DNA of 64,000 nt from Desulfosudis oleivorans (GCA_020723305.1 DYJC01000016.1:2650-66649), one strand, 5' to 3'. Counted from the first letter of the stretch, positions 1-34,407 are shown. Made by a program: numbers and translations. Notes: generated by a model not told the origin, from the letters alone.

Positions 1-280
1 GATTATCACTCGCGGAAACGGCATTACAGCACCTCAGGAGTACTTTCCAATTGACAAAAAAGCCACTCCGATGTTAACACTGTTTATGTTTAAAAATATT
101 GATAATAGTTGTCAATGATGAATACCCCATATAGGAATTATTTTTTTCCAATCACCCTTATTGCACTAACTTCCTTTTTCTTTTCCTGTGGAGATTGTGG
201 CGGAGATACCTCCTGCACACCTAATTCTGTCGGAACGCAATATATACATTCAAATTGCTATGCAGCACCCGGCTAACAAT

Positions 281-2653
281 ATGAAACAAATTGCAATGTC
301 TTTTAAGCGACTTTTTCGATTTCAGAATGGGATATTTTTGTTTCTTATTGTAATTATATTGTTTTCATATTCACAAGTTCTGAATTTCGACTATGTGAAT
401 TTAGATGATGATGTAAATGTATATGAGAATAAAAATATTCAATCCGGGTTCACACTTGAGAGTATCAAATGGGCTTTCACCTCATCCTATTGGGGTACAT
501 GGCAGCCAATGGTCTGGCTATCCTTTATGCTCAATTATCAGCTCCATGGAGAATCCCCCGGATGGTTTCATCTGACAAATGTTCTTCTTCATTTTTTCAA
601 TACACTGCTTTTATATTTTATCTTGAAACGGATGACTGGCTTTCATTATCGAAGTGCTTTTATTGCCTGTATATTCGCAATTCACCCAATCCACGTAGAA
701 TCTGTAGCCTGGATAACGGAAAGAAAAGATGTCCTGAGTACTTTCTGGGGGATGCTGTCGATATGGTATTATATCCGATATACGGAAAACAGGAAAATTC
801 TTCATTATATTCCGGTTTTCCTTTTTATGGGTTTTAGCCTCATGGCCAAGCCCATGTTGGTGACCTTGCCATTTGTGCTTCTATTGTTCGACTATTGGCC
901 GCTGAAACGAATGGAGTTAATGGAACTCCATGAAAAAAATCATAATACCGGTTATTTGCCGGCTGTCGGTTCTTTGTTTTCAACGACCGCAAGACGTTTG
1001 CCATTTTTAATTCTCGAAAAAATCCCTCTGTTTTTTTTGTCCGTACTATCATGCATCATAACTGTTTATGTCCAAAAGGAAGGGGGGGCAATAAAGTCCT
1101 TATCCTATTTCCCTGTCACTGTCCGAATTTCAAATGCCCTGGTATCTTATGTCGCATACTTGCAAAAATTTATTTGGCCCTTTGATCTTATGGTGTTTTA
1201 TCCTCATCCCGGTAAAATAATAATTGGAAAAACAATAGTCGCTATAGTGTTGCTTGTAAGTTTTACTCTTTTTGTTCTTCGGAAAAGTAAGGACGCTCCA
1301 TGGCTTTTTGTCGGGTGGTTTTTTTTTACAGGAACATTATTGCCTGTAATCGGAATCGTACAGTTGGGCGGTCATGCCATGGCAGATCGGTTCGTATATT
1401 TCCCGTCTATCGGTGTATATATAATAATAGCGTGGGGAGTATCTTCTCTAACCGGACAATCGAATGGAAATATAAAGTCTTTTTTAGCAGCTTTGACAGC
1501 TTGCTTTTTACTCATTCTGGCAATGGCTTCCTGGAAACAAGTGGGCTATTGGAGAGACAGTGAGATGCTTTTCAAGCATGCATTAAGTGTGTCGGATGAT
1601 AATTACATAGCAAATAACAACTATGGTATCGTTCTGAGAAATAGAGGCAAAACCGATGACGCAATAAAGCATTTCAAAAAAGCGATTACAAACAAAGGAA
1701 ATAATGTAATTGCGATGAACAATTTAGGCGTAGCCCTCGAAAGTATCGGGAAGCCTGATCCGGCAATTTTTTATTACCAGGCGGCAATTCAAATCAACCC
1801 CAATTATGCTGATCCGTATGTCAATCTCGCTTTTATTCTGCTTCACAAAGGGCAATATGAGGACGCATTGGAATTGTGCAATAAGGCATTGAATATTAAA
1901 CCGGAATTAGAAAGTGCGTATTCGCTGTTAGGGGATATTGCTGCCGCAAAAGGTGATTTACAACAAGCAATTTTTTTTTATAACAAAGCAATAGAAATGA
2001 ATCCAAGTTCTCACTTTGCACATAATCGAATAGGCGCAGCTTTACTTAAGCAAGATAGATTTAAAAAGGCGATTACTCATTTCAGAGAAGCGCTTAGATA
2101 CAGCCCTCATGATTGTAACTATCAAAAAAATTTGGAAGCAGCTATTGAACTGAGAAAGAAGGTTATCGATCTGATCAATAATCTTCACCTTGCAATGAAT
2201 CGAGAACCGGATAATTTGCACCTGAGAATCAAGCTGGGGAAGATGTATAAAAAAAACGAACAATACAGCGAAGCTATTGCGCTTTTCCAGCAAATCCTCT
2301 ATGAAAAACCGGATGCTGCTGCCGTGTTGCTGGAAATGGCATTGATTCATATGGAAGAAGAAGATAATGACATGGCAATACAATATTTTATGAAACTTAG
2401 CGCACTGGATCCGGGGAATAAGGTGTATCTATATAATATCGCCTGTTTATACGCCAGGCAGGATATGACCCACAATGCAATGGAATGGCTGCAAAAAGCG
2501 GTTGATGCCGGTTACCAAAATCGAGATCAAATTATGAATGATCCGGATTTGTCGGTATTGAAAAATACGAATGATTTTAAAAAGATTTTACAGAAATTGA
2601 GTTCCCCTGGTTCGACAAACACCCCGGAAGCAAAAAAGATTTTAAAAAGGTAG
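281..2653 (+). CDS. TMTC-like GT-C glycosyltransferase (PMT_2/DUF1736-type membrane domain) with C-terminal TPR array
   Basis: ORF 188..2653 starts at GTG; ATG at 281 or 296 lies just before the first TM helix. The polytopic N-half has the first-loop acidic motif FDYVNLDDDVNVYEN, HLTNVLLHFFN and HPIHVESVAWITERKDVLS, the motif set shared with eukaryotic TMTC O-mannosyltransferases. The C-half is a run of TPRs ending in a YNIACLYARQ...AVDAGYQN cap motif. Confidence 0.8.
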   Translation: MKQIAMSFKRLFRFQNGIFLFLIVIILFSYSQVLNFDYVNLDDDVNVYENKNIQSGFTLESIKWAFTSSYWGTWQPMVWLSFMLNYQLHGESPGWFHLTNVLLHFFNTLLLYFILKRMTGFHYRSAFIACIFAIHPIHVESVAWITERKDVLSTFWGMLSIWYYIRYTENRKILHYIPVFLFMGFSLMAKPMLVTLPFVLLLFDYWPLKRMELMELHEKNHNTGYLPAVGSLFSTTARRLPFLILEKIPLFFLSVLSCIITVYVQKEGGAIKSLSYFPVTVRISNALVSYVAYLQKFIWPFDLMVFYPHPGKIIIGKTIVAIVLLVSFTLFVLRKSKDAPWLFVGWFFFTGTLLPVIGIVQLGGHAMADRFVYFPSIGVYIIIAWGVSSLTGQSNGNIKSFLAALTACFLLILAMASWKQVGYWRDSEMLFKHALSVSDDNYIANNNYGIVLRNRGKTDDAIKHFKKAITNKGNNVIAMNNLGVALESIGKPDPAIFYYQAAIQINPNYADPYVNLAFILLHKGQYEDALELCNKALNIKPELESAYSLLGDIAAAKGDLQQAIFFYNKAIEMNPSSHFAHNRIGAALLKQDRFKKAITHFREALRYSPHDCNYQKNLEAAIELRKKVIDLINNLHLAMNREPDNLHLRIKLGKMYKKNEQYSEAIALFQQILYEKPDAAAVLLEMALIHMEEEDNDMAIQYFMKLSALDPGNKVYLYNIACLYARQDMTHNAMEWLQKAVDAGYQNRDQIMNDPDLSVLKNTNDFKKILQKLSSPGSTNTPEAKKILKR

Positions 2654-2661
2654 ATGGTTAT

Positions 2662-4098
2662 ATGGATTCCGCCCGACTGCTTTATCAAAATAAAAGAAGT
2701 ACTCATTGGGATAATGTGTCATCCCAAAAAGAAAAATCAGATAGGATCGGTGCGTATTATCAGAAATTACTGCAAGCATATTACAGGTTCCTTATTCCAT
2801 CCGGGATGCGGGTCCTTGAATTGGGAAGCGGTATTGGAGAACTGCTGAATGCAGTTGAGCCTTCTTATGGCGTTGGGGTAGATTTTTCGGGTGAGATGAT
2901 CAAAAAAGCAGGTGCAAAATATCCACACTTGAAGTTTATTCAGGCCGATGCACAGGAATTGCAGATTAATGAAAAATTTGATTTCATTGTTCTGTCCGAC
3001 CTTGTAAACGATCTTTGGGATGTACAAACGGTGTTCAATAAAATAAGAGCACTCGTTCACCCGGGTTCGCGACTTGTTTTGAATTTGTATAACAATTTAT
3101 GGCGAATTCCATTAGGGATCGTAAAACACTTGCATCTTGGGTTTGATGTGTTGGAACAGAATTGGTTCTCACCACACGATGTTACAAATCTATTGGAATT
3201 ATCGGGGTTTGAAATCGTGGGCCGAAATCCCAAAATTTTATTTCCACTGGATGTCCCATTTATAGCAGGGGTAATGAACAAGGCGGTTGTTAATTTTATA
3301 CCATTCCAATGGTTGGCGTTAACCAATTTTATCGTTGCCAAGCCCAAATTAACAGCAGAGGAGATTAGAACGAGGCAGAACCCGGTGGTTTCCGTAGTGG
3401 TCGCTGCCCGTAATGAAGCCGGAAATATTGAAAATATCTTTAAACGTATTCCCCAAATGGGAAAGTCGACGGAAATAATTTTTGTTGAAGGCGGCTCATC
3501 TGATAATACCTTCGGGATAATAGAACAAAAGATAAGTGAATTTCCAGATATCAAATGTAAGCTGTTTAAGCAGCCGGGAAAAGGAAAGGGTGATGCGGTT
3601 CGCCTTGGGTTTGAAAAGGCCGGTGGTGATGTTCTGATGATTCTTGATGCGGATTTAACAGTTCCACCGGAAGATTTGCTACGTTTTTTGGATGCGCTTG
3701 TATCAGGGCAAGGCGAATTTATTAATGGTGTCCGATTGGTTTATCCCATGGAGGGTGAAGCGATGCGGTTTTTCAATATTCTCGGCAACAAGTTTTTCAG
3801 TCTGGCTTTTTCATGGTTACTGGGGCAACCAATCAAAGATACCTTATGTGGGACAAAAGTTTTATATAAGAAAGACTATGCGTCAATAGCAAACAATAGG
3901 AAGTACTTTGGAGATTTTGATCCGTTTGGAGATTTTGATCTTATATTTGGAGCTTCAAAATTGCAACTGAAGTTCAAGGAAATACCAATTCGATATCGTG
4001 AACGGGTTTATGGGGATACCAATATCAGCCGATGGCGCCACGGCTGGTTGTTACTGAAAATGGTATTGTTTGCAGCAAAAAGAATTAAATTTATATGA
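2662..4098 (+). CDS. Fusion of class I SAM methyltransferase and family-2 glycosyltransferase (polyprenyl-phosphate sugar synthase-like)
   Basis: 478-aa ORF starting 9 nt after the upstream stop. The N-half has SAM motif VLELGSGIGELL. The C-half has GT2 motifs VSVVVAARNEAGNIE, EIIFVEGGSSDNT and MILDADLTVPPEDL (DxD), resembling DPM1/GtrB-type enzymes. Confidence 0.75.
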   Translation: MDSARLLYQNKRSTHWDNVSSQKEKSDRIGAYYQKLLQAYYRFLIPSGMRVLELGSGIGELLNAVEPSYGVGVDFSGEMIKKAGAKYPHLKFIQADAQELQINEKFDFIVLSDLVNDLWDVQTVFNKIRALVHPGSRLVLNLYNNLWRIPLGIVKHLHLGFDVLEQNWFSPHDVTNLLELSGFEIVGRNPKILFPLDVPFIAGVMNKAVVNFIPFQWLALTNFIVAKPKLTAEEIRTRQNPVVSVVVAARNEAGNIENIFKRIPQMGKSTEIIFVEGGSSDNTFGIIEQKISEFPDIKCKLFKQPGKGKGDAVRLGFEKAGGDVLMILDADLTVPPEDLLRFLDALVSGQGEFINGVRLVYPMEGEAMRFFNILGNKFFSLAFSWLLGQPIKDTLCGTKVLYKKDYASIANNRKYFGDFDPFGDFDLIFGASKLQLKFKEIPIRYRERVYGDTNISRWRHGWLLLKMVLFAAKRIKFI

Positions 4099-4164
4099 AG
4101 TGTAAGGATGGGCACCAAATCTAAATAAAAATAATATTTTAAATGGATTCAAAGTATTGTTGTT

Positions 4165-6777
4165 ATGTTGAAGTTGAAGTCTCAATCGAATGAAAACAAT
4201 TCAGGCTATAAGATTTATATTGTTTTGTTTATATGCTTGTCTGTTATTGCTGTGTATGCGCAAGTTTTCAATCATGATTTTATCAATTTCGACGATAATG
4301 AATATGTATACGATAATAAATATGTCATCAACGGTATAACTACAGATGCTTTGTCAAGAGTATTCCGTTTTTCAACAAATGGTGAGCGAAATTATTATCA
4401 TCCGTTAACCACACTTTCGCACATGTTGGACTGCCGGCTTTTCGGCCTGTCTCCTGGCCGGCATCATCTAACGAACCTTCTATTGCATCTGTTAAATGTA
4501 ATTTTACTGTTTATTGTTCTATTTTCCCTTACAAGGAAAATATGGCAAAGTGCTTTTGTGGTTGCACTTTTCGCATTGCACCCTTTAAACGTAGAGTCAA
4601 TTGCTTGGGTTGCAGAAAGAAAAAATCTTTTAAGTACCTTTTTTTGGTTTCTTACACTATTGTTATACATTCGTTATGTGAGAAAACCTTCTGTGAAATG
4701 GTTTATAGCCGTATTTTTCTCCATGTTGCTGGGGCTTTTTGCAAAACCAACTCTGATTACTTTACCATTTGTACTTATGTTGCTTGATTTTTGGCCATTA
4801 GGAAGGATAACATATCGAGACTCTGGTTTCTCATTATCTCAGAATTATCATCTCATTGCTGAAAAGATCCCATTGCTTTTTCTTTCGGTTGCTTGGACGT
4901 ATTTATCAATCCATTCTAACCAGCGTCTTGGAATAATGGTATCAGATATTACAGTCTCTATGGATCTTCGCATTGCGAATGCGCTAATTTCTTATGTGAA
5001 ATATATAGGAAAAATGCTTTGGCCATTTAATCTGGCCATATTCTATCCATATCCTACTCAGATGCCGCCTGTTTGGCAGATCACTGTAGCGTCTTTGGTT
5101 TTAAGCAGTGCTACAATCTATGTTGTAAAAAAATGGAAAATATTTCCATGGTTGTTGGTTGGATGGTTTTGGTATCTTGGAACGTTATTCCCTATGATTG
5201 GAATTGCACAAAACGGACTTTGGCCGGAAATGGCTGACCGATGGGCTTATATTCCTTCAATAGGAATTTACATAATGATTGCTTGGGGGGTATCAACTAT
5301 CTTTCGTTCCAGCAAGATAGTTGCGAGAGCAATACCTGTTTTCGCATGTGTTTTTTTTATTGTTATTAGTGTGATATCCTATGTCCAAACAAGTTTTTGG
5401 AAGAATAGTATCACGCTGTTTGAACACGTTATTAAAGCTACGAAAAATAATGTTATAGCTTATAACAACCTGGCTAACGCATTAATAATTAAAAAAGAAA
5501 GTGATCTCAGGGTTCCAATGGCGTACTTACAAAAAGCAATTGAATTGGACCCATCATTTACAAATTCGTACAGCAATTATGCTCTCTGCTTGTATAAACA
5601 ACAGCAATATAAGGAGGCAATATCATACTTTTTAAAAGTAATAGACATCAAAGAAAACGATGCTAACCTACATTGCCTGCTGGGGATGTCACTGCTTGAA
5701 CTGAATAATATTCCGCAAGCAATTTATCATATCACAAAAGCAAAACAGTTGAATCCTGATTCTTTTGAAATATTAATCAATTCGGCAATTGCGTATGAAA
5801 AAGCGGGGAAATTAATCGATGCAATTGGAATGTATAAGGAGGCGTTACAGTTTAAACCTCTTTCTCAGGAGATATACACTCACCTTGGACGTTCCTTGAA
5901 GGGCCTTGGGAGATATAAAGATGCTCTGGATTATACAAAACAGGCTCTTGCTATCAACCCTGAATATGCGGAGGCCCATAACACCATAGGAAATATATAT
6001 CAATCAATGGGGCAGGAAGAACTTGCCATAACTCATTTCAAGAAAGCGATTCAATTTAAACCCGATCTTTCAGAAGCATATAATAATTATGGAGCGATAC
6101 TGCTTAAGAAAAGACATTTGGATGAAGCGATATCCCACTTTGAAATAGCATTACAGAAAGATCCTAACCTTGTAGTAGTTCAAAAAAATTTGGGAGATGC
6201 TTATTTTCTTAAAGGAAATTTTGCGAAAGCGATTTCTTGCTATCAAAACGTATTGCAGAAAAAACCCAATCTGTCCAATACGCAGCAGCTAATTAATGAA
6301 GCTTATCGTTTAAAGGAACAGATGGAAATACAGATCCAGGATTTAGAGAAGAAGTTGCGTGGGACTGCAGACGATGATAAAATTTATTTTGAATTAGGAC
6401 AACTTTTCAGGCAAGCAGGTAGGTCGGAAGAAGCACTGCATCATTTCAGAAAGGCAATGGATTTGAATCCTGGTTTGGTGCAGGCTTTAAATTCAATTAT
6501 TTTTATCCTCACTGAAAAGGGCGATTATCAGGAGGCAATCGATGTATATAAAGGGTATTTGAAAATGTACCCCCGAAAGGTAAATATATACTACAATATA
6601 GCATGTTTATATGCACGGGAAAATAAAATTGCCGAATCGGTTCAATGGTTACATCAAGCGATTGATCAAGGATATAGTAATTGGGAACTTATAAGAACTG
6701 ATCGGGATATGGAAATTGTTAGAAACAGTTCGGAATATAAAAAAATGGCCTTAAAATTTCATGAGTTGCGGAAATGA
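4165..6777 (+). CDS. TMTC-like GT-C glycosyltransferase with C-terminal TPR array (paralog)
   Basis: 870-aa ORF with NHDFINFDDNEYVYDN, HHLTNLLLHLLN and HPLNVESIAWVAERKNLLS. Long TPR array. C-terminal cap YYNIACLYAREN...AIDQGYSNWE...SSEYKKM. Confidence 0.8.
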   Translation: MLKLKSQSNENNSGYKIYIVLFICLSVIAVYAQVFNHDFINFDDNEYVYDNKYVINGITTDALSRVFRFSTNGERNYYHPLTTLSHMLDCRLFGLSPGRHHLTNLLLHLLNVILLFIVLFSLTRKIWQSAFVVALFALHPLNVESIAWVAERKNLLSTFFWFLTLLLYIRYVRKPSVKWFIAVFFSMLLGLFAKPTLITLPFVLMLLDFWPLGRITYRDSGFSLSQNYHLIAEKIPLLFLSVAWTYLSIHSNQRLGIMVSDITVSMDLRIANALISYVKYIGKMLWPFNLAIFYPYPTQMPPVWQITVASLVLSSATIYVVKKWKIFPWLLVGWFWYLGTLFPMIGIAQNGLWPEMADRWAYIPSIGIYIMIAWGVSTIFRSSKIVARAIPVFACVFFIVISVISYVQTSFWKNSITLFEHVIKATKNNVIAYNNLANALIIKKESDLRVPMAYLQKAIELDPSFTNSYSNYALCLYKQQQYKEAISYFLKVIDIKENDANLHCLLGMSLLELNNIPQAIYHITKAKQLNPDSFEILINSAIAYEKAGKLIDAIGMYKEALQFKPLSQEIYTHLGRSLKGLGRYKDALDYTKQALAINPEYAEAHNTIGNIYQSMGQEELAITHFKKAIQFKPDLSEAYNNYGAILLKKRHLDEAISHFEIALQKDPNLVVVQKNLGDAYFLKGNFAKAISCYQNVLQKKPNLSNTQQLINEAYRLKEQMEIQIQDLEKKLRGTADDDKIYFELGQLFRQAGRSEEALHHFRKAMDLNPGLVQALNSIIFILTEKGDYQEAIDVYKGYLKMYPRKVNIYYNIACLYARENKIAESVQWLHQAIDQGYSNWELIRTDRDMEIVRNSSEYKKMALKFHELRK

Positions 6778-6841
6778 TTTTTTGGGGTATGCAAGGCGTA
6801 TTCAAGAGAATAGCATTTCCCTATGTGGTTGAGATAAAAAA

Positions 6842-7621
6842 ATGTTGAACAGGCTGAAAAAAATTCTGACCCATCCCCTTATGCGGGATGTTGATCTGGA
6901 TTCACCGGAAACAGCTTCTCGCGTTTTTACCATAATTAATGAAAAAAAAAACCTAAAACAGATTTATGAAAACTGGTATTCTTTCATATTACAAGCATTA
7001 CCTGCTGATAGAAATGGATCTATACTTGAGTTAGGATCCGGCAGTGGCTTTTTGGAGAAATATATTCCGAATTTAATTACATCCGAAATACTCAACATAC
7101 AGGGAGTCCGTGTCGTATTGGATGGTCAAAGTCTGCCGTTTCAAAAAAACAGCCTTAGTGGAATTGTTATGGTGGATGTGCTTCATCATTTGCCGGATGT
7201 GAAAACGTTCTTCAGGGAAGCTGCAACCTGTGTATCGCGAGGAGGTGTTATTGTTATGATTGAGCCTTGGGTGACATGGTGGTCAAGTATTGTTTATGGT
7301 CATCTGCACCATGAACCGTTTGATGCCAAAAGCAATGAATGGACTTTCGCTAAAGGAGCGCCTCTTACACAGGCGAATTCAGCATTGCCATGGATTGTTT
7401 TTCAGCGAGATAGAGAAGTTTTTACCAGGGAGTTCGCAGAATGGCGGATACTTGACATTCAGCTCCATACCCCTTTCATCTACCTTTTATCCGGAGGGGT
7501 GACGTTGCGAAATTTTGTTCCGGGGTTTCTATTTGATTTCTGCAAGAGGTTTGAAGCATTTTTAAATCCCTGGATAGGAACGTGGGCGATGTTTGCCACG
7601 ATTGTTTTGAAACGTAACTGA
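6842..7621 (+). CDS. Class I SAM-dependent methyltransferase
   Basis: 259 aa with SAM motif I ILELGSGSGFLEKYIP and a later GIVMVDVLHHLPD motif typical of Methyltransf_11/23-type enzymes. Confidence 0.7.
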   Translation: MLNRLKKILTHPLMRDVDLDSPETASRVFTIINEKKNLKQIYENWYSFILQALPADRNGSILELGSGSGFLEKYIPNLITSEILNIQGVRVVLDGQSLPFQKNSLSGIVMVDVLHHLPDVKTFFREAATCVSRGGVIVMIEPWVTWWSSIVYGHLHHEPFDAKSNEWTFAKGAPLTQANSALPWIVFQRDREVFTREFAEWRILDIQLHTPFIYLLSGGVTLRNFVPGFLFDFCKRFEAFLNPWIGTWAMFATIVLKRN

Positions 7622-7647
7622 TCTGAAAAAATGGGGAACAGCCCAAC

Positions 7648-7676
7648 TTGACAAAAACGGTTTTATTTTTTATGGT
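7648..7676 (+). promoter_or_regulatory. Candidate sigma70-type promoter (TTGACA-N17-TATGGT)
   Basis: TTGACA at 7648-7653, a 17-nt spacer, then TATGGT at 7671-7676, about 20 nt upstream of the 7697 ORF in an otherwise non-coding gap. Pattern match only. Confidence 0.3.
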
Positions 7677-7696
7677 TTTTTACATTTTTTACGATT

Positions 7697-9274
7697 ATGA
7701 AAATAGGAGATTATCTGGTAATGGGGAATAAGAATATGAGATATTTTACTTTTCGCGTACTTTTATATAGTTTGGTGATTTGTGCAACCACTGCCGCCGG
7801 TTGGGAACCAAGTCAAGCCTCTGATAGCAACTCAGAAAGACTATTTTCCGAACAACTGATACCGGTCGGGAAAAGTACAAAAGATCATTATATTTTTAAA
7901 GATTCGATTAAATACAACAGCGATCAGTCAAAGATGACCTATGTGGCTAATAAGGATAAAAAAAGTATTGTTTCTGTTAATGGGGATGCTGGAAAGTCAT
8001 GGGATAATATTGTTTTACCAACTCCTATTTTCAGCCCTGATGGGGATAGGGTGGCTTATATCGGGATTGATGGGAAGGATGTGCATCTGGTTGTTGATGG
8101 AAAACTTGGACCACGATTTGATAAAATTTGGGAGGTTCAGTTCAGTCCGGATAGCAAGCACTTCGCTTACCTGGCATCGTTAACAGAAAATAAAAATATC
8201 GATGTGTATCTGGTTATCAATCATAGAAAAGGACGAAAACTGCTGACAATCAAGGAGATGGGATTCAGCCCTGATTCAAGACATCTTGCATATATTGCCA
8301 TGCTATCAGATGGGAAGCAGCATCTGATTGTCGACAATCAAAAGGAAGGCCCTGGATTCGACATCCTGTTTAACATTGTCTGGAGTCCGGATTCAAAACA
8401 CTTAGCATATATTGCTGGAGATAAGCAACGCTTTTACGTGGTGCAGGATGGGGAAAAAACCAGCATATCGGGCGATTTAATAGGAATGACAACTTATAGC
8501 CCGGACTCGACCCAGCTTGCTGCCGCGGTGTTTGATAAAGAAACAAAAATGTGGACGATCTATTTGAATGAAAAAAAAATTGGGTCGTTTCCCTTTGTGG
8601 AAAAATTTAAATTCAGTCCTGACTCTAAGCATTACACTTTTCAAGGCGGAGAATCAAAAAGTGATTTCTCAATAATTCATAATGGGACAGAATATGGACC
8701 GTATGAAAATTGTTCGCTTCCCGTGTTCAGTAAGGATTCATCCCGTTTTGCGTATAATGCAAAAGATGGTGATGAATGGTTTATGGTTGTGAATGGGAAG
8801 GAGCAAAAAAAGTATTCTGTCGTTTATAATCCAATTTTTAGCGATGACTCCTTGCACTTGGCTTATCGTGTAAAAACAAACGATGATATGATGCGGATTG
8901 TTTTTGATAATCAGGAATTAAAGGCATATAAAAATGTCGGCACGCCGATATTCAGTCCCAAAGAATCACGGTTAGCCTATGCCATTTATGAAAATAATAA
9001 ATGGTTCTTTAATCTGGATGGGAATGAGGGTAAACAGTATGATAGCCTTGGTATAGGTGGTTTCAGTGAGGATGGTAAAATATTTGTTTACACTGCAAAA
9101 CGAAATGACAAGTATTTTGTCGTGGTTAACGGCCAGGAAGGGGAAACCACGTTTGACGGTACACTTGCAGGTTCAGAGGTAATATTCAGTTCGCCACAAT
9201 ATTGCCATTTTTTCGTTTTTAAAAACGTTGCTGATGGAAGTGAATTATATAGACTGGATGTAAAAATAAAATAA
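7697..9274 (+). CDS. Secreted PD40/TolB-type beta-propeller repeat protein
   Basis: 525 aa with a signal-like MRYFTFRVLLYSLVICATTAAG; the start may be 7697, 7721 or 7736. About eleven ~38-40-aa repeats each begin FSPDSKH(L/F)AY and contain VV.(D/N)GKE...YD. Confidence 0.7.
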   Translation: MKIGDYLVMGNKNMRYFTFRVLLYSLVICATTAAGWEPSQASDSNSERLFSEQLIPVGKSTKDHYIFKDSIKYNSDQSKMTYVANKDKKSIVSVNGDAGKSWDNIVLPTPIFSPDGDRVAYIGIDGKDVHLVVDGKLGPRFDKIWEVQFSPDSKHFAYLASLTENKNIDVYLVINHRKGRKLLTIKEMGFSPDSRHLAYIAMLSDGKQHLIVDNQKEGPGFDILFNIVWSPDSKHLAYIAGDKQRFYVVQDGEKTSISGDLIGMTTYSPDSTQLAAAVFDKETKMWTIYLNEKKIGSFPFVEKFKFSPDSKHYTFQGGESKSDFSIIHNGTEYGPYENCSLPVFSKDSSRFAYNAKDGDEWFMVVNGKEQKKYSVVYNPIFSDDSLHLAYRVKTNDDMMRIVFDNQELKAYKNVGTPIFSPKESRLAYAIYENNKWFFNLDGNEGKQYDSLGIGGFSEDGKIFVYTAKRNDKYFVVVNGQEGETTFDGTLAGSEVIFSSPQYCHFFVFKNVADGSELYRLDVKIK

Positions 9275-9342
9275 ATTATTAATCTATATCCTATCATTTT
9301 GTTTGGGCCAATACTGCAGACGGTATATAGGCGTTAGAGATT

Positions 9343-15274: not shown

Positions 15275-15413
15275 TTGGGTTTGACACTCCATCCTATTTC
15301 TTGCAGCATTTAGCACACTGCCTACAATGGAGAGGTTATTCGTTACTGGACCGTTTGGGTTCCCGGCGCCCCCCAGCAATAAAATTTATTTAGAAATCTC
15401 ACTGATTGCCATT

Positions 15414-19321: not shown

Positions 19322-20458
19322 TCAGGGCTTCTTCAAACCTGAGATATTATCTTGAGGAGAGATTGCTGCTTCTTTACCACTATAAGCATTTAATTCAATA
19401 AGCCCTAATTTTTTTATTTCATTAAATAATCTTTGGGTGAAAAGATATGCACCTTCATTATTAAAATGTCCATAATCAATAATGGCGGAATCATTCAATC
19501 CACAGTCTTCTGGTCTATTCCAAACTATGGAATGCACGTTTTCGTTGTTTAAGGTAAAAATATAATCTAAATATATCAAATTAGCAGCAGTTAATTCCTG
19601 AATTCCTTCTATAACATCTATATATTTATTGCGTAATGGGGGTTGAAGAATAACAATCTTTTTAGTCTTTTTCTCGACGATATTTATAAGACGGTTAAGA
19701 TATTCAGCCTTATATTCAGCAAATTGGTAATTCCCCATTGCTTTAATTTGATTTCGAACCGAAAAAATTTGATCAGTAGCAAGTTTTATATATGCTGATT
19801 GTTTGTAATGGTATTCTGGAATATAATCAGGATTATAAGGTTCTGGACGTTTTCCAATCATAAGTGAATAAAAAATAGTACCCCATTCCTCAAGGGTGCG
19901 ACGTTGGGAGTGTGGAAAAAAGTAATCTGATAACAAAAGTAACCTCAATTTTAAATCTGGTAACGCTAATCTTTCTTGAAAAGTAGACCAGGTAAGAAAA
20001 GCAGTTTCTCCGGCACCCAAAGGATAAAAATTTTTATTGAACATCCATGGGGCAACCTCAATAATTACAAGTGGATTTGAGTTTAGCAAGTCGGGATATT
20101 TTCTGCAAAATAATAATTCCTCCCAAGTACCAGCACCATTACTTTGGAGTATAAGTATTTTTGACTGTTCAATACCTGATAGTTTAGAAAAAAGATCTCT
20201 CTTGATACAGGAGGCTATACGAGAACTCCCCAAAAAGATCACTTTTGCATTATTAGGCCTTTTAAGATCAAGGTATGAAATAACGGGGGTTACAAAAGAT
20301 TTATTATTAATCATTTCCAAGGAATCTCGGTTAATTGAAAGACCAACACAAGTGCAGGTCAAAATAATTAGTGTTAAAATAAAAACCTTTATGTGAGATG
20401 ACAATTTATTAAAAAAACTAAAAATTGAAATAAATAAATGGTTGGACATAGCTTTCAC
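19322..20458 (-). CDS. SGNH-like periplasmic partner of MBOAT O-acyltransferase (DUF1574/AlgJ/PatB-like)
   Basis: 378 aa with one N-terminal TM helix. SGNH-type block I VIFLGSSR and block V IDYGHFN. It overlaps the 3' end of the upstream MBOAT gene by 41 nt. MBOAT plus an extracytoplasmic SGNH-like partner is the AlgI/AlgJ-X, PatA/PatB arrangement. Confidence 0.55.
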   Translation of the reverse strand: MKAMSNHLFISIFSFFNKLSSHIKVFILTLIILTCTCVGLSINRDSLEMINNKSFVTPVISYLDLKRPNNAKVIFLGSSRIASCIKRDLFSKLSGIEQSKILILQSNGAGTWEELLFCRKYPDLLNSNPLVIIEVAPWMFNKNFYPLGAGETAFLTWSTFQERLALPDLKLRLLLLSDYFFPHSQRRTLEEWGTIFYSLMIGKRPEPYNPDYIPEYHYKQSAYIKLATDQIFSVRNQIKAMGNYQFAEYKAEYLNRLINIVEKKTKKIVILQPPLRNKYIDVIEGIQELTAANLIYLDYIFTLNNENVHSIVWNRPEDCGLNDSAIIDYGHFNNEGAYLFTQRLFNEIKKLGLIELNAYSGKEAAISPQDNISGLKKP

Positions 20459-21839
20459 CTATGAAGGAGATACTCAGGATGAGCAAGGCATAGACAATAC
20501 TTCTCCAGAGCCACGGGGTCTCTGACGTTACCAGCAATTCTCGGTTGAATCTGTATGGTAGTAAATCTATTGCCAAGACAACGGCCATATAAAAAAGTGT
20601 AATGAATATGAGCGAAGCTGATGAATACCCGAGGTGGGAAATATTAAATAAAAAATATGAATAGTTATATGCAGTCTCTAAATCAGGCGCTCTGAAGAAT
20701 ATCCATGCAAACGCTACGATGTGAAATGTAATGAACACTGAGAACAAGGACTTCATAGTGCCATGAACTTGCAGGGTGGTTGACCCTGGTTTTTTGAGAC
20801 TGCCCCTAAAATATCTTGATAAGGCCAAGTATGTTCCATGGATGCCCCCCCAAGCTACAAATACCCATGATGCTCCATGCCAGAGACCACAAAGGAGCAT
20901 AGTGGCGAGAAGGTTAATATATGTCCGGGCAGTGCCTTTCTTGCTGCCTCCCAAGGGGATGTAGAGATAGTCCCTTAGCCAGGTTGAAAGGGATATGTGC
21001 CACCTCTTCCAGAATTCCCTGATATTTTTTGACAGGTAAGGCTGTTTGAAATTTTCCATTATCTCTATGCGTAGAAGCTTGCTGGCCCCCCGGACTATGT
21101 CCGTGTAGCCGGAAAAGTCTGCATAGATCTGAAGTGTATACAGATAAATCCCGCATAGAAGATCTATGGACATAAACTGTTGTGGAGAAGAAAAAAGTTG
21201 ATCAACATATGGGGCAACTGCATCTGCGATCACTTTCTTTTTGAAAAAACCAAGGAGTATCAGATGCAGGCCAGCAAAAATCTGTTCTTTACCAATAATC
21301 CTCTTCCTATCAATCTGCTGTAGAAAGGTGCCAGCTCTTCCGATGGGTCCAGCAGATATTTCCGGAAAATAGCCAACGAATAAAGCAAATGATATGATAT
21401 CTGCAGGCGCTTGCTCACCTCTATAGACATCCATAAGATACCCAATGATCTTGAATGTGAAAAAACTGATTCCAAGGGGTAATATGAGGTTCAGTATCTG
21501 CATATTGGGTAAAAATCCAAAAGGCTGAAAGGCTGCAATGAATGAGTCGACGAAGAAATTGTAGTATTTGAAAAATCCCAGAATACTCAGATTATACATT
21601 AAGCTCATGATTAAAATGGTTTTTCTTGTTGTCTGATCCTTTGCTGCGTGTATTTTCAAACCAAAATAAAAGTTTAATGAAGTAGTAATAATAATAAGTG
21701 CGAGAAAACGATAGTCCCAGTAGCTGTAGAAAAGATAACTTGCAATAAGTAGGAATATGTTCTGCCACAACCCCGATAAGGAATAGTATACTGGGAGTGT
21801 TGCAAGTATAATAATTATGACCCAATAATTGAAAAGCAT
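20418..21839 (-). CDS. MBOAT-family membrane O-acyltransferase (AlgI/DltB-like)
   Basis: ORF 20418..21935; ATG at 21839 gives MLFNYWV, a typical MBOAT N-terminus. The catalytic-His region FWKRWHISLSTWLRDYLYIPLGG is the canonical AlgI/DltB motif. Confidence 0.85.
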   Translation of the reverse strand: MLFNYWVIIIILATLPVYYSLSGLWQNIFLLIASYLFYSYWDYRFLALIIITTSLNFYFGLKIHAAKDQTTRKTILIMSLMYNLSILGFFKYYNFFVDSFIAAFQPFGFLPNMQILNLILPLGISFFTFKIIGYLMDVYRGEQAPADIISFALFVGYFPEISAGPIGRAGTFLQQIDRKRIIGKEQIFAGLHLILLGFFKKKVIADAVAPYVDQLFSSPQQFMSIDLLCGIYLYTLQIYADFSGYTDIVRGASKLLRIEIMENFKQPYLSKNIREFWKRWHISLSTWLRDYLYIPLGGSKKGTARTYINLLATMLLCGLWHGASWVFVAWGGIHGTYLALSRYFRGSLKKPGSTTLQVHGTMKSLFSVFITFHIVAFAWIFFRAPDLETAYNYSYFLFNISHLGYSSASLIFITLFYMAVVLAIDLLPYRFNRELLVTSETPWLWRSIVYALLILSISFIGESYVQPFIYFNF

Positions 21840-21979
21840 TATAACTTGATCTTCAAATTTTTCATAAGGTGAATCCGATAAAACAATATCCTCTATGACA
21901 GAAAGAAAACACTCGACCTTGATTTTGGATGTCAAGCTGTTTCAGGGTGATATCATGGTTTGGCCCTTTAAGTCATGAT

Positions 21980-23125
21980 TTATCCAAAAAAATCCGTTAT
22001 TTTTTCGATAACTCTGTCTGTTTCATTATCACTCATTTCATAATACATCGGTAAGCGCAGAATCCTGTCACTTAGACACTCAGTATTTGAAAGATCGCCA
22101 TTTGTTCTGCCAAATTTAATGCCTGCAGGTGATGAGTGCAGGGGGATATAATGGAATATGGCATAAATGCCAAATCCTTTAAGGAAATCGATTAATCTGG
22201 TCCTTTCATCATTGGATCTTAGAATAATATAGAAAATGTGGCCATTACAGACATTCAATTCTTCAACGTAAGGTAAACGAATAATACCTTTATCCTCAAA
22301 TGGTTTTAAAAGTTGATAATATTTGTTAAATATTTTACATCGAACGGATATTATTTTCTCTGCCATTTCGAACTGGGCATATAAAAAAGCACCCACTAGT
22401 TCACTTGGTAGAAAAGATGAACCGATATCCACCCAGGTGTACTTGTCAACCTCACCTCTCAGGAAACGGTTGCGATTGGTTCCTTTTTCCCGGATAATCT
22501 CCGCCCGTTCGATAAATCTATCGTCATTTATTAACAGTGCGCCTCCTTCACCGCTGATGATATTTTTGGTTTCATGGAAGCTGAGGCACCCCAGGTGACC
22601 GATGGTTCCCAGGGCTTTGTCTTTGTATTTTGAAAGCAATGCCTGTGCTGCGTCTTCAATCACATATAAATGGTGTTCATCTGCAATTTCGGATATTTTG
22701 TCCATTTCACAAGGTATACCGGCATAATGCACTGGTACGATAGCTCTTGTTTGGGGCGTAACTGCCTGGACAATTTTTTTTTCATCCAGGTTGAGTGTGT
22801 CCGGTCTGATGTCTATGAATACAGGCACCGCACCGCGAAGTACAAAGGCATTGGCAGTGGATACAAAGGTGAACGAGGGCATGATGACTTCATCACCGGG
22901 CTTGATATCACACAATATGGCAGCCATCTCCAGCGCGGCGGTACATGAATTCGTGAGCAGAGCTTTCCGGCAGTTCAGTTGTTCTTCAAGCCATTGGTGA
23001 CATCGTTTTGTAAATGGCCCATCCCCAGATAAATGAGCCTCAATAACGGCCTGGGCGATATTGTAAAGTTCTTTTCCGACAATGAATGGTTTGTTGTAAG
23101 GTATGGTGTGATCCTGAGAAGACAT
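21980..23125 (-). CDS. wecE: dTDP-4-amino-4,6-dideoxyhexose (Fuc4N-type) transaminase, DegT/WecE family
   Basis: 381 aa. From memory it aligns over its full length with E. coli WecE/RffA: IPYNKPFIVGKEL, GDGPFTKRCHQWLE, PGDEVIMPSFTFVSTANAFVLRGA, VPVHYAG, SFHETKN (PLP lysine), EIIREKGTNR, DKYTWVDIGSS, HYIPLH. Confidence 0.8.
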   Translation of the reverse strand: MSSQDHTIPYNKPFIVGKELYNIAQAVIEAHLSGDGPFTKRCHQWLEEQLNCRKALLTNSCTAALEMAAILCDIKPGDEVIMPSFTFVSTANAFVLRGAVPVFIDIRPDTLNLDEKKIVQAVTPQTRAIVPVHYAGIPCEMDKISEIADEHHLYVIEDAAQALLSKYKDKALGTIGHLGCLSFHETKNIISGEGGALLINDDRFIERAEIIREKGTNRNRFLRGEVDKYTWVDIGSSFLPSELVGAFLYAQFEMAEKIISVRCKIFNKYYQLLKPFEDKGIIRLPYVEELNVCNGHIFYIILRSNDERTRLIDFLKGFGIYAIFHYIPLHSSPAGIKFGRTNGDLSNTECLSDRILRLPMYYEMSDNETDRVIEKITDFFG

Positions 23126-23161
23126 ATCTTCATCCCTTTTATATTTTTATTGCGGTTCGTC

Positions 23162-23698
23162 TCAAAAAGAAGTTGTATTATCTTTTATTTCACGCTTTTT
23201 TATTATCTTTGCAGGAATCCCGGCAACTATGACATAGGGAGGAATATTTTTTGTGACCAAAGATCCAGCGGCAATTACGCTGCCCTCGCCAACAGTCACT
23301 CCATGAATTATTGTACAACAAGCACCAATCCAGACATTGTCCTTGATAATAATGTTTCCGCCGCTATCCGGTAATGATAGTCTGGTGTAGTCATGCCCGG
23401 CACCTAATAACGTTACCTCAGGGCCGATTGCAACGTTATTGCCAATTTTGATGGTATAGTTTCCGGCTAATCTGGATCCAAAGAATTTACATCCTCTATT
23501 TATCGCAACATTATTTCCAATGGAGATTTTTGATGGGTATCTGAAATAACAAGAGTAATCAATAAGAACATCTTTACCCAGTTTTTTAAATACAGCCTTA
23601 AAAAATAAAAAACGTATAATAGGCGGGCAAAGATCGATTACACCCATAAGGATTTTTGTTATATAGGAATAATATAAAAATAGAAATTTTTTACTCAA
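23162..23698 (-). CDS. Hexapeptide-repeat (LbH) acetyltransferase, WbbJ/LacA-like
   Basis: 178 aa with left-handed beta-helix repeats (IKDNVWIGACCTIIHGVTVGEGSVIAAGSLVTKNIPPYVIVAGIPAKI) and a hydrophobic N-terminus. Confidence 0.75.
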   Translation of the reverse strand: MSKKFLFLYYSYITKILMGVIDLCPPIIRFLFFKAVFKKLGKDVLIDYSCYFRYPSKISIGNNVAINRGCKFFGSRLAGNYTIKIGNNVAIGPEVTLLGAGHDYTRLSLPDSGGNIIIKDNVWIGACCTIIHGVTVGEGSVIAAGSLVTKNIPPYVIVAGIPAKIIKKREIKDNTTSF

Positions 23699-24032
23699 AA
23701 TTTCCCCATGAATAAATAACTATACCTGTTATTATAATAAAAACCGAAAGTATTTTTCTTTTTGATATACTTTCATTCAATATTATTTTTGTAAAAAAAA
23801 AAGTAAACAAATAAGATAACGGCAATAGTGCCGTGGCAGTCAAAAGGCTTATTTTTTTTAAACAGTACACAGAAATGACCGTTGTTATAAAAAACAATAA
23901 GTACCCAACTACAAGGTATCTGTTAATTATGAAAAAATCAGGTTTATTCATTGTGCTCATTTTTAGTAGAACTTGAGCGAAGCCAGTTATTCCTGTTGCA
24001 AGAATATAAAGTAAAATGAAAAGTATCTTCAT
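23691..24032 (-). CDS. Small four-TM EamA/SMR-like protein (ArnE/ArnF-like flippase subunit candidate)
   Basis: 113 aa, about four TM helices, directly downstream of a similar 121-aa protein. The size and pairing match the ArnE/ArnF heterodimer. The call rests on architecture only. Confidence 0.5.
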   Translation of the reverse strand: MKILFILLYILATGITGFAQVLLKMSTMNKPDFFIINRYLVVGYLLFFITTVISVYCLKKISLLTATALLPLSYLFTFFFTKIILNESISKRKILSVFIIITGIVIYSWGNFE

Positions 24033-24036
24033 AATT

Positions 24037-24402: not shown

Positions 24403-24467
24403 ATGGTCGCCAGTTTGTCGTTATCAAGCACGTAATGGGCGCCTATTATGTGATGATCATATACCCC

Positions 24468-25840: not shown

Positions 25841-25878
25841 TTCTTTTGAGGATAAGAAATTGTAATACACGGCGATAC

Positions 25879-26712: not shown

Positions 26713-26719
26713 CTTTTCA

Positions 26720-27652: not shown

Positions 27653-27667
27653 CGGCTTATTCTCCTA

Positions 27668-28615: not shown

Positions 28616-28625
28616 TTGCCGGTTC

Positions 28626-34323: not shown

Positions 34324-34337
34324 TGTTATACCCCCTG

Positions 34338-34407
34338 TTACACCCCCCTGGCCCCCCTCGAGGGGGGAATTGCCTCAAGGGGGGAATGCCATAAAAAGGG
34401 GGGATTT
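34338..34407 (+). repeat. C6/G6 palindromic repeat locus R1
   Basis: Core CACCCCCCTGGCCCCCCTCGAGGGGGGAAT at 34341-34370, followed by degenerate half-units (CTCAAGGGGGGAAT, AAAAGGGGGGATT). Confidence 0.85.

Follow-up and report, generated by a model that had tools for sequence, protein, structure and literature searches.

The window, by which we mean the whole stretch of 64,000 nucleotides of Desulfosudis oleivorans DNA analysed here, encodes six proteins with a GT-C fold, A to F (Table 1). A sequence-only reading of the same DNA had counted these six, and we found all of the open reading frames where it had placed them. Four of them, A-D, combine a TMTC-like GT-C membrane domain with TPR arrays; E was recognized as a GT-C protein by Foldseek and F by the Pfam YfhO model. 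Three of the open reading frames can be extended upstream, that of A to a GTG at 188, that of C to a TTG at 15379 and that of F to another TTG at 29452. Local profile searches detected exactly four TMTC-like genes in the 64-kb window.

Table 1. GT-C genes and associated features in the window
Feature	Position	Strand	Evidence and remarks
A	281-2653	+	TMTC-like GT-C membrane domain (~425 aa), ~10 TPR lengths, C-terminal TPR_END_plus
SAM methyltransferase-GT2 fusion (AglJ/Dol-P-hexose synthase type)	2662-4098	+	Pfam; NCBIfam AglJ 90 bits, Dol-P-hexose transferase 52 bits
B	4165-6777	+	TMTC-like GT-C, ~13 TPR lengths, TPR_END_plus
Small SAM methyltransferase	6842-7621	+	Pfam; travels with the methyltransferase-GT2 fusion
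Secreted beta-propeller-like protein	7697-9274	+	PD40/TmcD-type repeats; same operon
Second beta-propeller-like protein	9343-10854	+	
E	10881-12884	+	Separate GT-C-fold membrane protein, short TPR tail
C	12935-15274	-	TMTC-like GT-C, ~11 TPR lengths
Acyl_transf_3 membrane acyltransferase	15414-16727	-	Pfam 71.5 bits; also in L132
Amino-sugar donor genes	21980-25037	-	Arn-like pathway
WecE-type transaminase	21980-23125	-	607 bits (cut-off 375)
Hexapeptide acetyltransferase	23162-23698	-	
ArnF/ArnE-like small EamA pair	23691-24032, 24037-24402	-	Weak: ArnE 35, ArnF 24-30 bits (cut-offs 92-99)
PglD/VioB-type N-acetyltransferase	24468-25037	-	NeuD/PglB/VioB 144 bits
GT2 polyprenyl-P-sugar synthase, PgfS/ArnC type	27668-28615	-	PgfS 174, ArnC 139 bits (NCBIfam); full-length, below equivalog cut-offs
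F	29599-31803	+	YfhO-type GT-C; Pfam YfhO 83.4 bits (cut-off 28.5); weak PgfM1 and PgfM2 matches
Sugar-1-P nucleotidylyltransferase-GT2 fusion (AglJ/Dol-P-hexose-synthase-like)	34419-35930	+	AglJ 130, PpgS 63 bits; conserved in L131
MSHA-like type IV pilus/T2SS machinery	44422-57002	+	T2SSE+MshEN ATPase, PilM-like, secretin, AAA_22, PilB/MshE, PilC/GspF
Type IV pilin	57301-57696	+	Class III signal peptide, Ser/Thr-rich C-terminal half; N_methyl 30.2 bits (cut-off 21.2)
D	57764-59875	-	TMTC-like GT-C, ~8 TPR lengths; pilin-adjacent (TfpW-like) subtype
Three minor pilin/pseudopilin genes	60072-60581, 60578-61000, 61167-61733	+	N_methyl matches, one GspH match, motif scan

A-D had been described as four paralogues of one architecture. 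This holds, with A, B and C as close relatives (37-44% mutual identity across ~415 aa; BLASTP E 1e-79 to 1e-113) and D as a distant one: BLASTP aligns D with A-C over the first ~190 aa only (25-29% identity, E 1e-9 to 1e-14), and profile searches and alignment show it to be collinear with them along the entire membrane domain. E-values of this order exclude chance similarity. The motifs that had been quoted are present in all four proteins, namely (F/Y)DD around residues 40-45, H..N..(L/I)H around 97-104 and HP....E/T..V....(E/Q)R around 135-150. Pfam detects strong TPR arrays in A-C (TPR_1 E 1e-45 to 1e-60), a moderate one in D and a short one in E. No NCBIfam model matches the membrane domains of A-D, and the PMT_2 model (PF13231), run on the N-domains alone, gave borderline scores for A and B (27.3 and 27.1 bits, cut-off 26.1), no match for C and D, and matches in 6 of 16 family members (best 7e-9). 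Clustered at 50% identity, the superfamily of bacterial TMTC-like GT-C plus TPR proteins numbers ~73,000 representatives. Many homologues are labelled ‘Tfp pilus assembly protein PilF’ or ‘TadD’ in the source databases, and the 90% clusters of B and C in JGI/IMG already carry the KO-based name ‘protein O-mannosyl-transferase’.

The membrane domains alone match the N-domains of animal TMTC proteins (phmmer E 1e-6 to 1e-17, 34-69 bits), for example A with E 1.8e-17 against fly TMTC1, and B and D with E 5e-16 and 1.3e-14 in the TMTC comparison. Against a profile built from the N-domains of eight animal TMTCs, A-D score 82-101 bits. In the collinear alignment, DD, H..N..LH, HP.H.E.V....R, a Lys, an Arg, a Pro and (E/D)RxxYxPS stand in register; the first-loop pair D43/D44 (motif M1) aligns with the TMTC DD. 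Among 34 homologues (~48% identity) D43, D44, H101, H108, H139, P140, R152, K194, R269, Y280, P287 and Y362 are invariant, and this conservation of the Asp pair together with some ten further residues of the periplasmic loops indicates an active site. TMTC1-4 (CAZy GT105), which O-mannosylate cadherins, thus share with A-D a homologous membrane domain of 11 TM helices followed by non-cytoplasmic TPRs, as well as DD, H..N..LH, HP.H.E.V....R(xD), (E/D)RxxYxPS, the arginine of JM3 and the lysine of KE(T/Q)xxT.

There are also differences from TMTC1-4. Pfam DUF1736 (PF08409) matches neither A-D nor 16 homologues even at E ≤ 1-10, and its core motifs DNP and DW (M5) are absent from the alignment of A-D, which retains just the JM3 Arg and a Pro. 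Of the M2 motif, SHKSYRP in TMTCs, the SHKS part is absent and just (R/H)P is kept; D has TRPLSYLTFALN where TMTC has YRPLCVLTFKLN. The Lys of M4, KE(T/Q)xxT, is invariant, whereas its Glu is kept solely in D (KENALM) and replaced by Pro in A-C. The M7 motif ERxxY before TM10 is shared, TMTC AERVLYxPS aligning with ADRxxY(I/F)PS in A-C and EHRNYLPS in D. The residues modelled as TMTC metal ligands are missing: all four proteins lack the Asp of DW, and A-C also lack the Glu of KE. The motif set had been assigned to the TMTC/DUF1736 branch; since DUF1736 is unmatched and DNP and DW are absent, it marks a TMTC-like lineage and not the DUF1736 signature.

The AlphaFold2 model of the N-domain of B (pLDDT 81.8, pTM 0.88) contains 11 TM helices, and Foldseek matches it to ArnT (top), PglB, Pmt4 and STT3 with probability 1.00 and TM-scores of 0.37-0.53, which predicts a class A GT-C fold. 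Lys plus Arg make up 27% of the predicted cytoplasmic loops and 8% of the periplasmic ones; this count and the model predict that the TPR array and all of the conserved motifs face the periplasm, in agreement with the periplasmic system that had been proposed. Sequence searches in the PDB with single sequences or profiles returned no solved GT-C enzyme, ArnT 5EZM being unmatched by phmmer, so that A-D do not join ArnT (GT83) by sequence; no solved TMTC structure was found. The profile and structure comparisons suggested by the sequence-only reading thus bore out the TPRs and, with B as the modelled protein, the GT-C fold, gave PMT_2 only at the border for A and B, and did not return DUF1736. 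Grouping with ArnT had been offered as a refutation. ArnT is indeed the top structural match, but it is the best template for TMTCs as well (PMC7801869) and for TfpW, which makes the match uninformative. Via the published alignment of TMTC, ArnT and Pmt1, the Asp pair of A-D is the putative equivalent of the ArnT/PMT catalytic site. ArnT (GT83), PMT (GT39) and PglB/STT3 (GT66) resemble A-D in overall fold and in the acidic catalytic motif of the first loop; they differ in their acceptors and in the soluble part, which is MIR in PMT, mixed alpha/beta in PglB and missing in ArnT, as opposed to the TPRs of A-D.

Taking homology, model and analogy together, we consider A-D to be probably polyprenyl-P-sugar-dependent GT-C class A glycosyltransferases that act on proteins and form a bacterial lineage sister to TMTC1-4. 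Their N-terminus would be cytoplasmic and followed by 11 membrane helices. The first periplasmic loop would carry the catalytic Asp-Asp, other loops on this side would carry HP..E..R, (E/D)RxxYxPS, Y-x6-P and the conserved Lys and Arg, and the periplasmic TPR array would hold the acceptor. By analogy, a cytoplasmic Dpm1/AglJ/ArnC-like GT2 would load a sugar onto undecaprenyl phosphate, in place of the dolichol-P used by TMTC1-4. The methyltransferase-GT2 fusion next to A, the PgfS/ArnC-type GT2 and the nucleotidylyltransferase-GT2 fusion are candidates for this step, and the methyltransferases may methylate the sugar. The lipid-linked sugar would then be flipped into the periplasm, the ArnE/F-like pair being one candidate flippase, and the GT-C enzyme would move it onto Ser/Thr of the TPR-held protein. 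The donors postulated earlier could thus be supplied by three GT2s and the ArnE/F-like pair. A comparable scheme is known from GtrA/GtrB/GtrC, CsbB-YfhO and PgfS-PgfM, where a GT2 makes the Und-P-sugar, a small flippase follows and a GT-C enzyme transfers extracytoplasmically. The window has direct counterparts for each of these parts in F, the PgfS/ArnC-like GT2 (whose gene is divergent from that of F) and the ArnE/F-like pair, whereas A-D are not homologues of YfhO or GtrC and carry TPR arrays. E and F are separate GT-C enzymes that probably share the lipid-linked donors of A-D.

The clearest lead to a substrate comes from D, whose gene lies inside the type IV pilus cluster, between the pilin gene and the minor pilins, a position that the sequence-only reading had overlooked. 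D is convergent with the gene of this pilin (13 kDa). All five sampled D homologues (45-62% identity) are directly adjacent to a pilin gene, and Desulfonema magnum retains the pair although the pilus machinery is not adjacent there. We also searched genome contigs with the conserved N-terminal pattern of Pseudomonas pilins (at least 120 loci; PA7 was not among the matches listed). In six Beta-/Gammaproteobacterial loci a D-like gene (E 1e-36 to 1e-55) follows a classical T4a pilA directly downstream on the same strand, and a seventh, weaker TMTC-like open reading frame occupies the same position in locus L113. The pilins adjoining these genes are Ser- and Thr-rich.

This arrangement recalls TfpW, the GT-C pilin O-arabinosyltransferase of Pseudomonas aeruginosa Pa5196/PA7, which is encoded beside pilA and combines 11 TM helices with TPRs on the periplasmic side; its loop 1 contains an essential DDx, whose mutation abolishes glycosylation (bioRxiv 10.1101/2020.04.19.049825). 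It modifies Ser/Thr of pilin from a polyprenyl-P-sugar and depends on a small partner protein resembling a flippase (GtrA or ArnE/F). The statement that no substrate of a bacterial TMTC-like enzyme had been defined experimentally overlooks this enzyme. By its published description TfpW resembles D in the N-in topology, the 11 TM helices, the periplasmic C-terminal TPRs, the DDx of loop 1 and the pilin-adjacent gene, and in the six proteobacterial loci the D-like genes follow pilA as tfpW does. TfpW and B both have ArnT as their best structural template. The proline motif of periplasmic loop 4 reads YX6PFX7P in TfpW; A-C have YX6PFX6PXP, and D and the homologues downstream of pilA have YX6P only. 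From architecture, gene position and motifs only, we infer that TfpW (AAM52060.1) and D are homologous. There are differences: D is convergent with the pilin gene and not co-transcribed, in this genome the genes of A-C do not adjoin a pilin gene, and, unlike for TfpW, no DprE1/E2 genes (decaprenyl-P-arabinose) are present, so that the sugar of D must differ from arabinose. Since D stands beside a pilin as TfpW does, its acceptor is by this analogy most probably the adjoining type IV pilin. The earlier idea of several acceptor-specific transferases stays conjectural, with an acceptor indicated for D only.

The genes of A/B/C type occur as tandem arrays, and we sampled the neighbourhoods of such genes at 38 metagenome loci. 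The commonest neighbour was a Dpm1/ArnC-like GT2 (13/38 loci, often 4-460 bp away). Fusions like the methyltransferase-GT2 protein next to A adjoin the arrays in L129, L130, L132 and 6 of the 38 loci, and homologues of the small SAM methyltransferase were found in L129, L130, L132 and 3 of the 38. Loci L129, L130 and L133 had given the impression that the arrays are generally linked to pilins; this was overturned by the larger sample, in which a pilin lay within 10 kb at 4/38 loci. Pilins can thus be considered as acceptors of A-C only in those genomes that carry large arrays. Other secreted proteins were considered. The first beta-propeller-like protein is conserved together with E in L131 and L132; we rejected both beta-propeller proteins as acceptors, since close relatives retain them only together with E and they are not recurrent neighbours of A/B/C-type genes. 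DUF6160-like proteins are encoded upstream of A in L132 (one, 24 bits, below cut-off) and beside the array in L133 (two), but no homologue recurs in the 38 loci and they were therefore rejected as general acceptors.

Another reading of these neighbourhoods is that A-C, and possibly D, add periplasmic side-branch sugars to O-antigen, capsule, exopolysaccharide or a lipid-linked glycan, as enzymes of the GtrC/ArnT/YfhO type do, with the TPR array docking on the apparatus that exports the polysaccharide, on the model of BcsC, PgaA and AlgK. The A-E cluster is accompanied by a Wzm/Wzt ABC transporter, located upstream of A in L132 (the sequence upstream of the window was taken from this relative, with proteins at least 90% identical), an Lcl_C protein, the Acyl_transf_3 protein, for which glycan O-acylation is possible, and an MBOAT/DltB-like enzyme. 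All of these neighbours would also suit modification of a glycan polymer. The small share of pilin-linked loci and the rank of ArnT in the Foldseek search point in the same direction, and the TPRs score on the PgaA, BcsC and PEP-CTERM PrsT models. However, the BcsC and PgaA matches are generic repeat matches far below the cut-offs, no polysaccharide-export neighbour recurs across the 38 loci, the adjacency of D to a pilin is hard to account for, and both characterized enzymes of the same architecture, the TMTCs and TfpW, act on proteins (PMC7801869 for the TMTCs). We regard polymer modification as unlikely.

Could the GT-C-like domain be devoid of activity, merely binding polyprenyl-P-glycans or anchoring the protein as in PIG-U, with the TPRs as a pilotin or a scaffold in the assembly of a pilus or secretion system? 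The database names PilF and TadD, the location of D in a pilus cluster and the missing metal ligands would agree with such a role, and E adds to this. E has no sequence similarity to A-D by BLASTP, phmmer or profile and belongs to a small family (52 matches); its AlphaFold2 model (pLDDT 94.6) returns only GT-C enzymes among the top 24 Foldseek matches, including ALG12, AglB, ArnT, STT3 and PglB. Loop 1 holds no invariant Asp/Glu among 35 E-family sequences, the conserved elements being instead GHHGF and Y.RFP. Nevertheless, a non-catalytic role of A-D is highly improbable: the Asp pair and some ten loop residues are invariant, TfpW loses glycosylation on mutation of its DDx, GT2 donor synthases occur next to A/B/C-type genes more often than any other protein, and the PilF/TadD names derive only from the TPR part. 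That A-D modify lipid A or core with a 4-amino-sugar from the Arn-like cluster is scarcely credible: transaminase, N-acetyltransferases, ArnC-like GT2 and ArnE/F-like pair are indeed present and ArnT is the best structural match, but it is so for TMTCs and TfpW too, shows no sequence similarity to A-D by single sequence or profile and has no TPR domain, and the GT-C gene divergently adjacent to the amino-sugar pathway is YfhO.

The reading of A-D as protein glycosyltransferases concerns a family that is very large, almost unstudied, already present in the literature and provided with a KO-based name. Bacterial TMTC homologues were noted by Eisenhaber et al. 2021 (PMC7801869), among them AMJ42_05695 of Deltaproteobacteria bacterium DG_8, found by BLAST from human TMTC3 in uncultured Deltaproteobacteria and a full-length GT-C plus TPR protein like A-D. 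Context, substrate and subfamilies were not analysed there; the pilin linkage, the tandem arrays and the GT2 partners were not described. As the family is common, noted and named, the value of the present locus lies in the substrate lead and not in the existence of the genes. To our knowledge bacteria have no cadherins, the acceptors of TMTC1-4, and the conserved pair of D and a pilin provides an acceptor hypothesis.

Pilin glycosylation influences phage resistance, pilus assembly and surface properties, and type IV pili and related fibres also play a part in the aggregation and syntrophy of Desulfobacterota. A wider reading, which we put forward as speculative, is that the superfamily including TfpW consists at its root of O-glycosyltransferases of type IV pilins and other Ser/Thr-rich surface proteins, that TMTC1-4 descended from these, and that arrays like A-B-C assemble O-glycans that are methylated or placed at several sites of fibre proteins in Desulfobacterota. 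If true, such arrays would work with the fused methyltransferase/Und-P-sugar synthase. In humans, TMTC1-4 are associated with disease (cobblestone lissencephaly, hearing loss), and what is known of their enzymology comes mostly from models. Given a defined acceptor, the large bacterial sister family would offer tractable TMTC homologues for structural and biochemical work.

All six open reading frames named in the sequence-only reading are present with the boundaries it had assigned: the four paralogs A–D, each a TMTC-like GT-C membrane domain followed by a TPR array, the separate membrane and TPR protein E and the YfhO-type protein F (Pfam YfhO match of 83 bits). On translation, the three motifs it had quoted were seen throughout A–D: (F/Y)DD around residue 43, H..N..(L/I)H around residues 101–108 and HP....E/T..V....(E/Q)R around residues 139–152. 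In BLASTP comparisons of the membrane domains A, B and C share 37–44% identity over ∼415 residues (E 1e-79 to 1e-113), D aligns with them over its first ∼190 residues (25–29% identity, E 1e-9 to 1e-14) and E shows no similarity to A–D. According to Pfam the TPR arrays are strong in A–C, weaker in D and short in E. In local profile searches the window proved to hold exactly four TMTC-like genes and a single E-type gene. A ∼55-aa 'TPR end-of-group' domain (NF047558; motif YNIACLYAR...A..WL..A...GY.....(I/L)..D.D(L/M)) ends A, B and a stand-alone TPR lipoprotein; NF047558 scores 57–99 bits in A–C, and the C-termini of C and D are without this domain.

Features of the window, in nucleotide positions
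Feature	Position	Strand	Remarks
A	281-2653	+	790 aa; ORF open to GTG at 188
TPR end-of-group domain of A	2500-2650
Methyltransferase-GT2 fusion	2662-4098		candidate polyprenyl-P-sugar synthase 1
B	4165-6777	+	870 aa
TPR end-of-group domain of B	6620-6775
E	10881-12884	+	667 aa
C	12935-15274	-	779 aa
TPR lipoprotein	16875-17942		355 aa
TPR end-of-group domain of lipoprotein	17000-16875
IS66 fragments	18072-18957	-	TnpB_IS66 fused to truncated DDE_Tnp_IS66
Putative Arn-like cluster	19322-29366	-
MBOAT and overlapping protein	19322-21935	-	DltB 184 bits, below equivalog cut-off; 378 aa
Two adjacent small EamA proteins	23691-24402	-	weak ArnE/ArnF similarity
GT2	27668-28615		candidate synthase 2; full-length alignment with PgfS 174 bits, ArnC 139 bits
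F	29599-31803	+	734 aa
DDE_Tnp_1_assoc fragment	31821-32135	+
Aerotolerance operon	32450-43989	+
Nucleotidyltransferase-GT2 fusion	34419-35930		candidate synthase 3; AglJ 130 bits
DUF559 endonuclease-like gene	39473-39937
MshEN ATPases	44422-46581, 54068-55777
Type IV pilin	57301-57696		131 aa; convergent with D; N_methyl 30 bits, cut-off 21
D	57764-59875	-	703 aa
Three minor pilins	60072-61733		following D

Pfam by itself is ambiguous on the TMTC kinship of A–D: PMT_2 gives borderline scores of 27 bits for A and B (cut-off 26.1) and no match for C or D, and DUF1736 is never matched. The membrane domains of A–D, stripped of the TPRs, were compared at Z = 1e6 with the TMTC N-terminal sequences that Eisenhaber et al. 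2021 give in Additional file 1 (PMC7801869). Each of the four matches every human and Drosophila TMTC (34–69 bits, E 1e-6 to 2e-17); ArnT and Pmt1 from the same file were not matched, and E and F gave no matches to any of these sequences. As a control, all PDB sequences, those of ArnT, PglB, PMTs and STT3 included, were searched with a 16-member family profile and gave no match. The A–D/TMTC alignment is collinear and shares DD, H..N..LH, HP.H.E.V....R(xD), the KE(T/Q)xxT Lys, the JM3-helix Arg and Pro, and (E/D)RxxYxPS; the Glu of KE is replaced by Pro in A–C. SHKS is absent from A–D, and so are DNP and DW, the core of DUF1736. With the motifs shared and this core missing, A–D belong by alignment to a bacterial lineage sister to TMTC, without the DUF1736 signature. 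The earlier TMTC-like GT-C assignment is thus borne out, and the attribution to DUF1736 is not, as Pfam gives no match and DNP and DW are missing.

The B membrane domain was modeled with AlphaFold2 using 34 homologues (pLDDT 81.8, pTM 0.88, 11 membrane helices). In Foldseek searches of the PDB the top matches of this model were only GT-C class A enzymes, namely ArnT, PglB, Pmt4 and STT3; the matches as a whole included no solved TMTC structure. Grouping with ArnT had been proposed as a test that would speak against the assignment. However, ArnT is the best template for TMTCs too (PMC7801869) and for TfpW, the Pseudomonas aeruginosa pilin O-arabinosyltransferase (bioRxiv 10.1101/2020.04.19.049825), so its first rank is no argument against TMTC kinship and the test is uninformative. 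K+R density is 27% in predicted cytoplasmic loops versus 8% in periplasmic loops, all invariant residues fall in predicted periplasmic loops, and with 11 helices the TPR array is predicted to lie in the periplasm. The E model (AlphaFold2 with 35 homologues) reached a pLDDT of 94.6 and its top 24 Foldseek matches were all GT-C enzymes; E is thus, by predicted structure, the fifth GT-C-fold protein of the window. It comes from a small separate family (52 matches) in which no invariant acidic residue was found in loop 1.

The statement that bacterial TMTC-like enzymes have no experimentally defined substrate had overlooked TfpW, a characterized counterpart by architecture. TfpW from P. aeruginosa Pa5196/PA7 has 646 aa, a cytoplasmic N-terminus, 11 predicted TM helices, a C-terminal periplasmic TPR domain, an essential DDx in periplasmic loop 1 and YX6PFX7P in loop 4; encoded directly downstream of pilA, it transfers D-arabinofuranose from a polyprenyl-P donor to pilin Ser/Thr and requires a GtrA-like or ArnE/F-type partner (bioRxiv 10.1101/2020.04.19.049825). 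As judged from this published description, its architecture is that of A–D.

D lies in a type IV pilus cluster, convergent with a pilin that contains '...NEEG|FTLVEIIAVLVILGILAAVAIP...'; genes for PilB/MshE, PilC/GspF, a secretin, a PilM-like protein and an AAA_22 protein lie upstream. Two secretion ATPases of the cluster, one unusually long (719 aa), carry c-di-GMP-binding MshEN N-domains, which suggests c-di-GMP control of this pilus. In all five sampled D homologues (45–62% identity, picked for the length of their contigs) a gene for a ∼130-aa pilin directly adjoins, and in Desulfonema magnum the pair is kept although the pilus machinery is not adjoining; on the far side of the five, small GT2s, methyltransferases or radical-SAM genes are often found. 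An independent set comprised 120 listed genome loci picked solely for encoding a classical T4a pilin N-terminus. Among these, at least 11 or 12 carry a TMTC-like ORF within 8 kb, and in at least seven it directly follows pilA in the same orientation, the gene order of pilA-tfpW. Six of the seven match D at E 1e-36 to 1e-55: L014 (Betaproteobacteria), L029 (Gammaproteobacteria), L101 (Solimonas terrae), L112 (Salinisphaerales), L120 (Berkiella) and L125 (Competibacteraceae). They carry the motifs of D, KE among them, and several keep EHRNY; the seventh, L113 (Gammaproteobacteria), is a weaker match and a more divergent member.

A and B flank the methyltransferase-GT2 fusion, the GT2 part of which is similar to AglJ and Dol-P-hexose synthases. 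B is followed by a small methyltransferase, two beta-propeller proteins and E, with C and an Acyl_transf_3 gene on the opposite strand. Two outside loci, L129 and L130, have the order pilS/pilR, pilin, four to five A/B/C-type paralogs, methyltransferase-GT2 fusion and small methyltransferase. The C-terminal halves of their pilins (L129 3152-3538, L130 5503-5943) are very Ser/Thr-rich, e.g. 'YFADTTTTTTTVTTAGAPSYSVDT...SFSHSSSTTTYTLGTDGNLTSN', as would be expected of heavily O-glycosylated pilins. The L129 array also contains two GT-C proteins without TPRs (9753-11750 and 15706-17385), one matching PMT_2 and the other PMT, PMT_2 and, weakly, a TMEM260-like family, so that a single locus combines several O-mannosyltransferase-like lineages. 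A third outside locus has six A/B/C-type paralogs and no pilin. A metagenome scan supplied 38 loci, each at least 9 kb long, in which we then counted features within ±10 kb. Two or more paralogs stood in tandem in 14 loci, and the methyltransferase-GT2 fusion occurred in 6; the commonest neighbor was a Dpm1/AglJ/ArnC-like GT2 (13 loci, often 4–460 bp off), so a donor-synthase partnership of A/B/C-type genes is well supported. Of the initial interpretation, which is supported in part, the periplasmic, lipid-linked-donor logic holds as well. The general pilin linkage that L129 and L130 had suggested was abandoned, as a pilin-like gene occurs in just 4 of the 38; pilin and fusion cluster in arrays of at least four paralogs, each being found in 3 of 5 such arrays.

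For A–C a polysaccharide acceptor is possible, since in L132, a relative with proteins at least 90% identical, the genes upstream of A encode a small secreted DUF6160-like protein (weak, N-terminal), an Lcl_C protein and a Wzm/Wzt transporter. The DUF6160 protein (L132 5352-5732, 24 bits) lies ∼400–780 bp upstream of A, outside the window; proteins of this type also stand beside an A/B/C-type array in L133 (14274-16402), with a C39 peptidase adjoining. Their N-termini have a signal peptide and then (L/M)xDx(E/T)(L/M)Dx(V/I)TGQxG, and they did not recur in the 38 other loci. The mechanism best supported would be an O-glycosylation that draws on Und-P-sugars and modifies periplasmic or surface proteins, the target of D being the neighboring pilin.

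Besides the fusion between A and B, the window holds two further candidate polyprenyl-P-sugar synthases. The minus-strand cluster before F reads as a putative Arn-like pathway for a 4-amino-4,6-dideoxyhexose: it encodes a WecE-type dTDP-4-amino-4,6-dideoxyhexose transaminase (607 bits, above cut-off), two acetyltransferases (an N-acetyltransferase of PglD/VioB type and another of the hexapeptide class), WbqC, the ArnC/PgfS-like GT2, the EamA pair, a methyltransferase, a creatininase-like amidohydrolase and a radical SAM/SPASM enzyme. Being divergent from F, it would complete a classical GT2-flippase-GT-C trio. Its MBOAT gene, with strong DltB similarity, overlaps that of a protein that is membrane-anchored at its N-terminus and matches no family, a pair that resembles DltB/DltD or AlgI/AlgJ-type O-acylation pairs. 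The third candidate synthase, a sugar-1-P nucleotidyltransferase-GT2 fusion, interrupts, along with the DUF559 gene, an otherwise complete MoxR/DUF58/VWA/BatA-BatD operon; it has the same place in the related MAG L131, so this association is conserved. The IS66 and DDE_Tnp_1_assoc fragments are decayed mobile elements bordering the glycosylation blocks.

Among 1.84 billion cluster representatives the B membrane domain matches 73,181 at E ≤ 1e-3 and 15,593 at E ≤ 1e-30; word-indexed searches gave over 7,300 clusters of B type and over 3,100 of D type. Most of them are from Desulfobacterota and other uncultured bacteria. Their database names are 'tetratricopeptide repeat protein', 'PilF', 'TadD' or, at JGI, 'protein O-mannosyl-transferase', the name already borne there by the 90% clusters of B and C. 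Full-length prokaryotic GT-C+TPR homologues of TMTC were reported by Eisenhaber et al., for example a Deltaproteobacterial protein with E 3e-47 to TMTC3 (PMC7801869); we found no experimental literature on bacterial TMTC-like proteins except TfpW. A–D are additions to a known, very large and poorly studied family, and their value lies in the testable pairing of D with its pilin, not in the existence of the genes.
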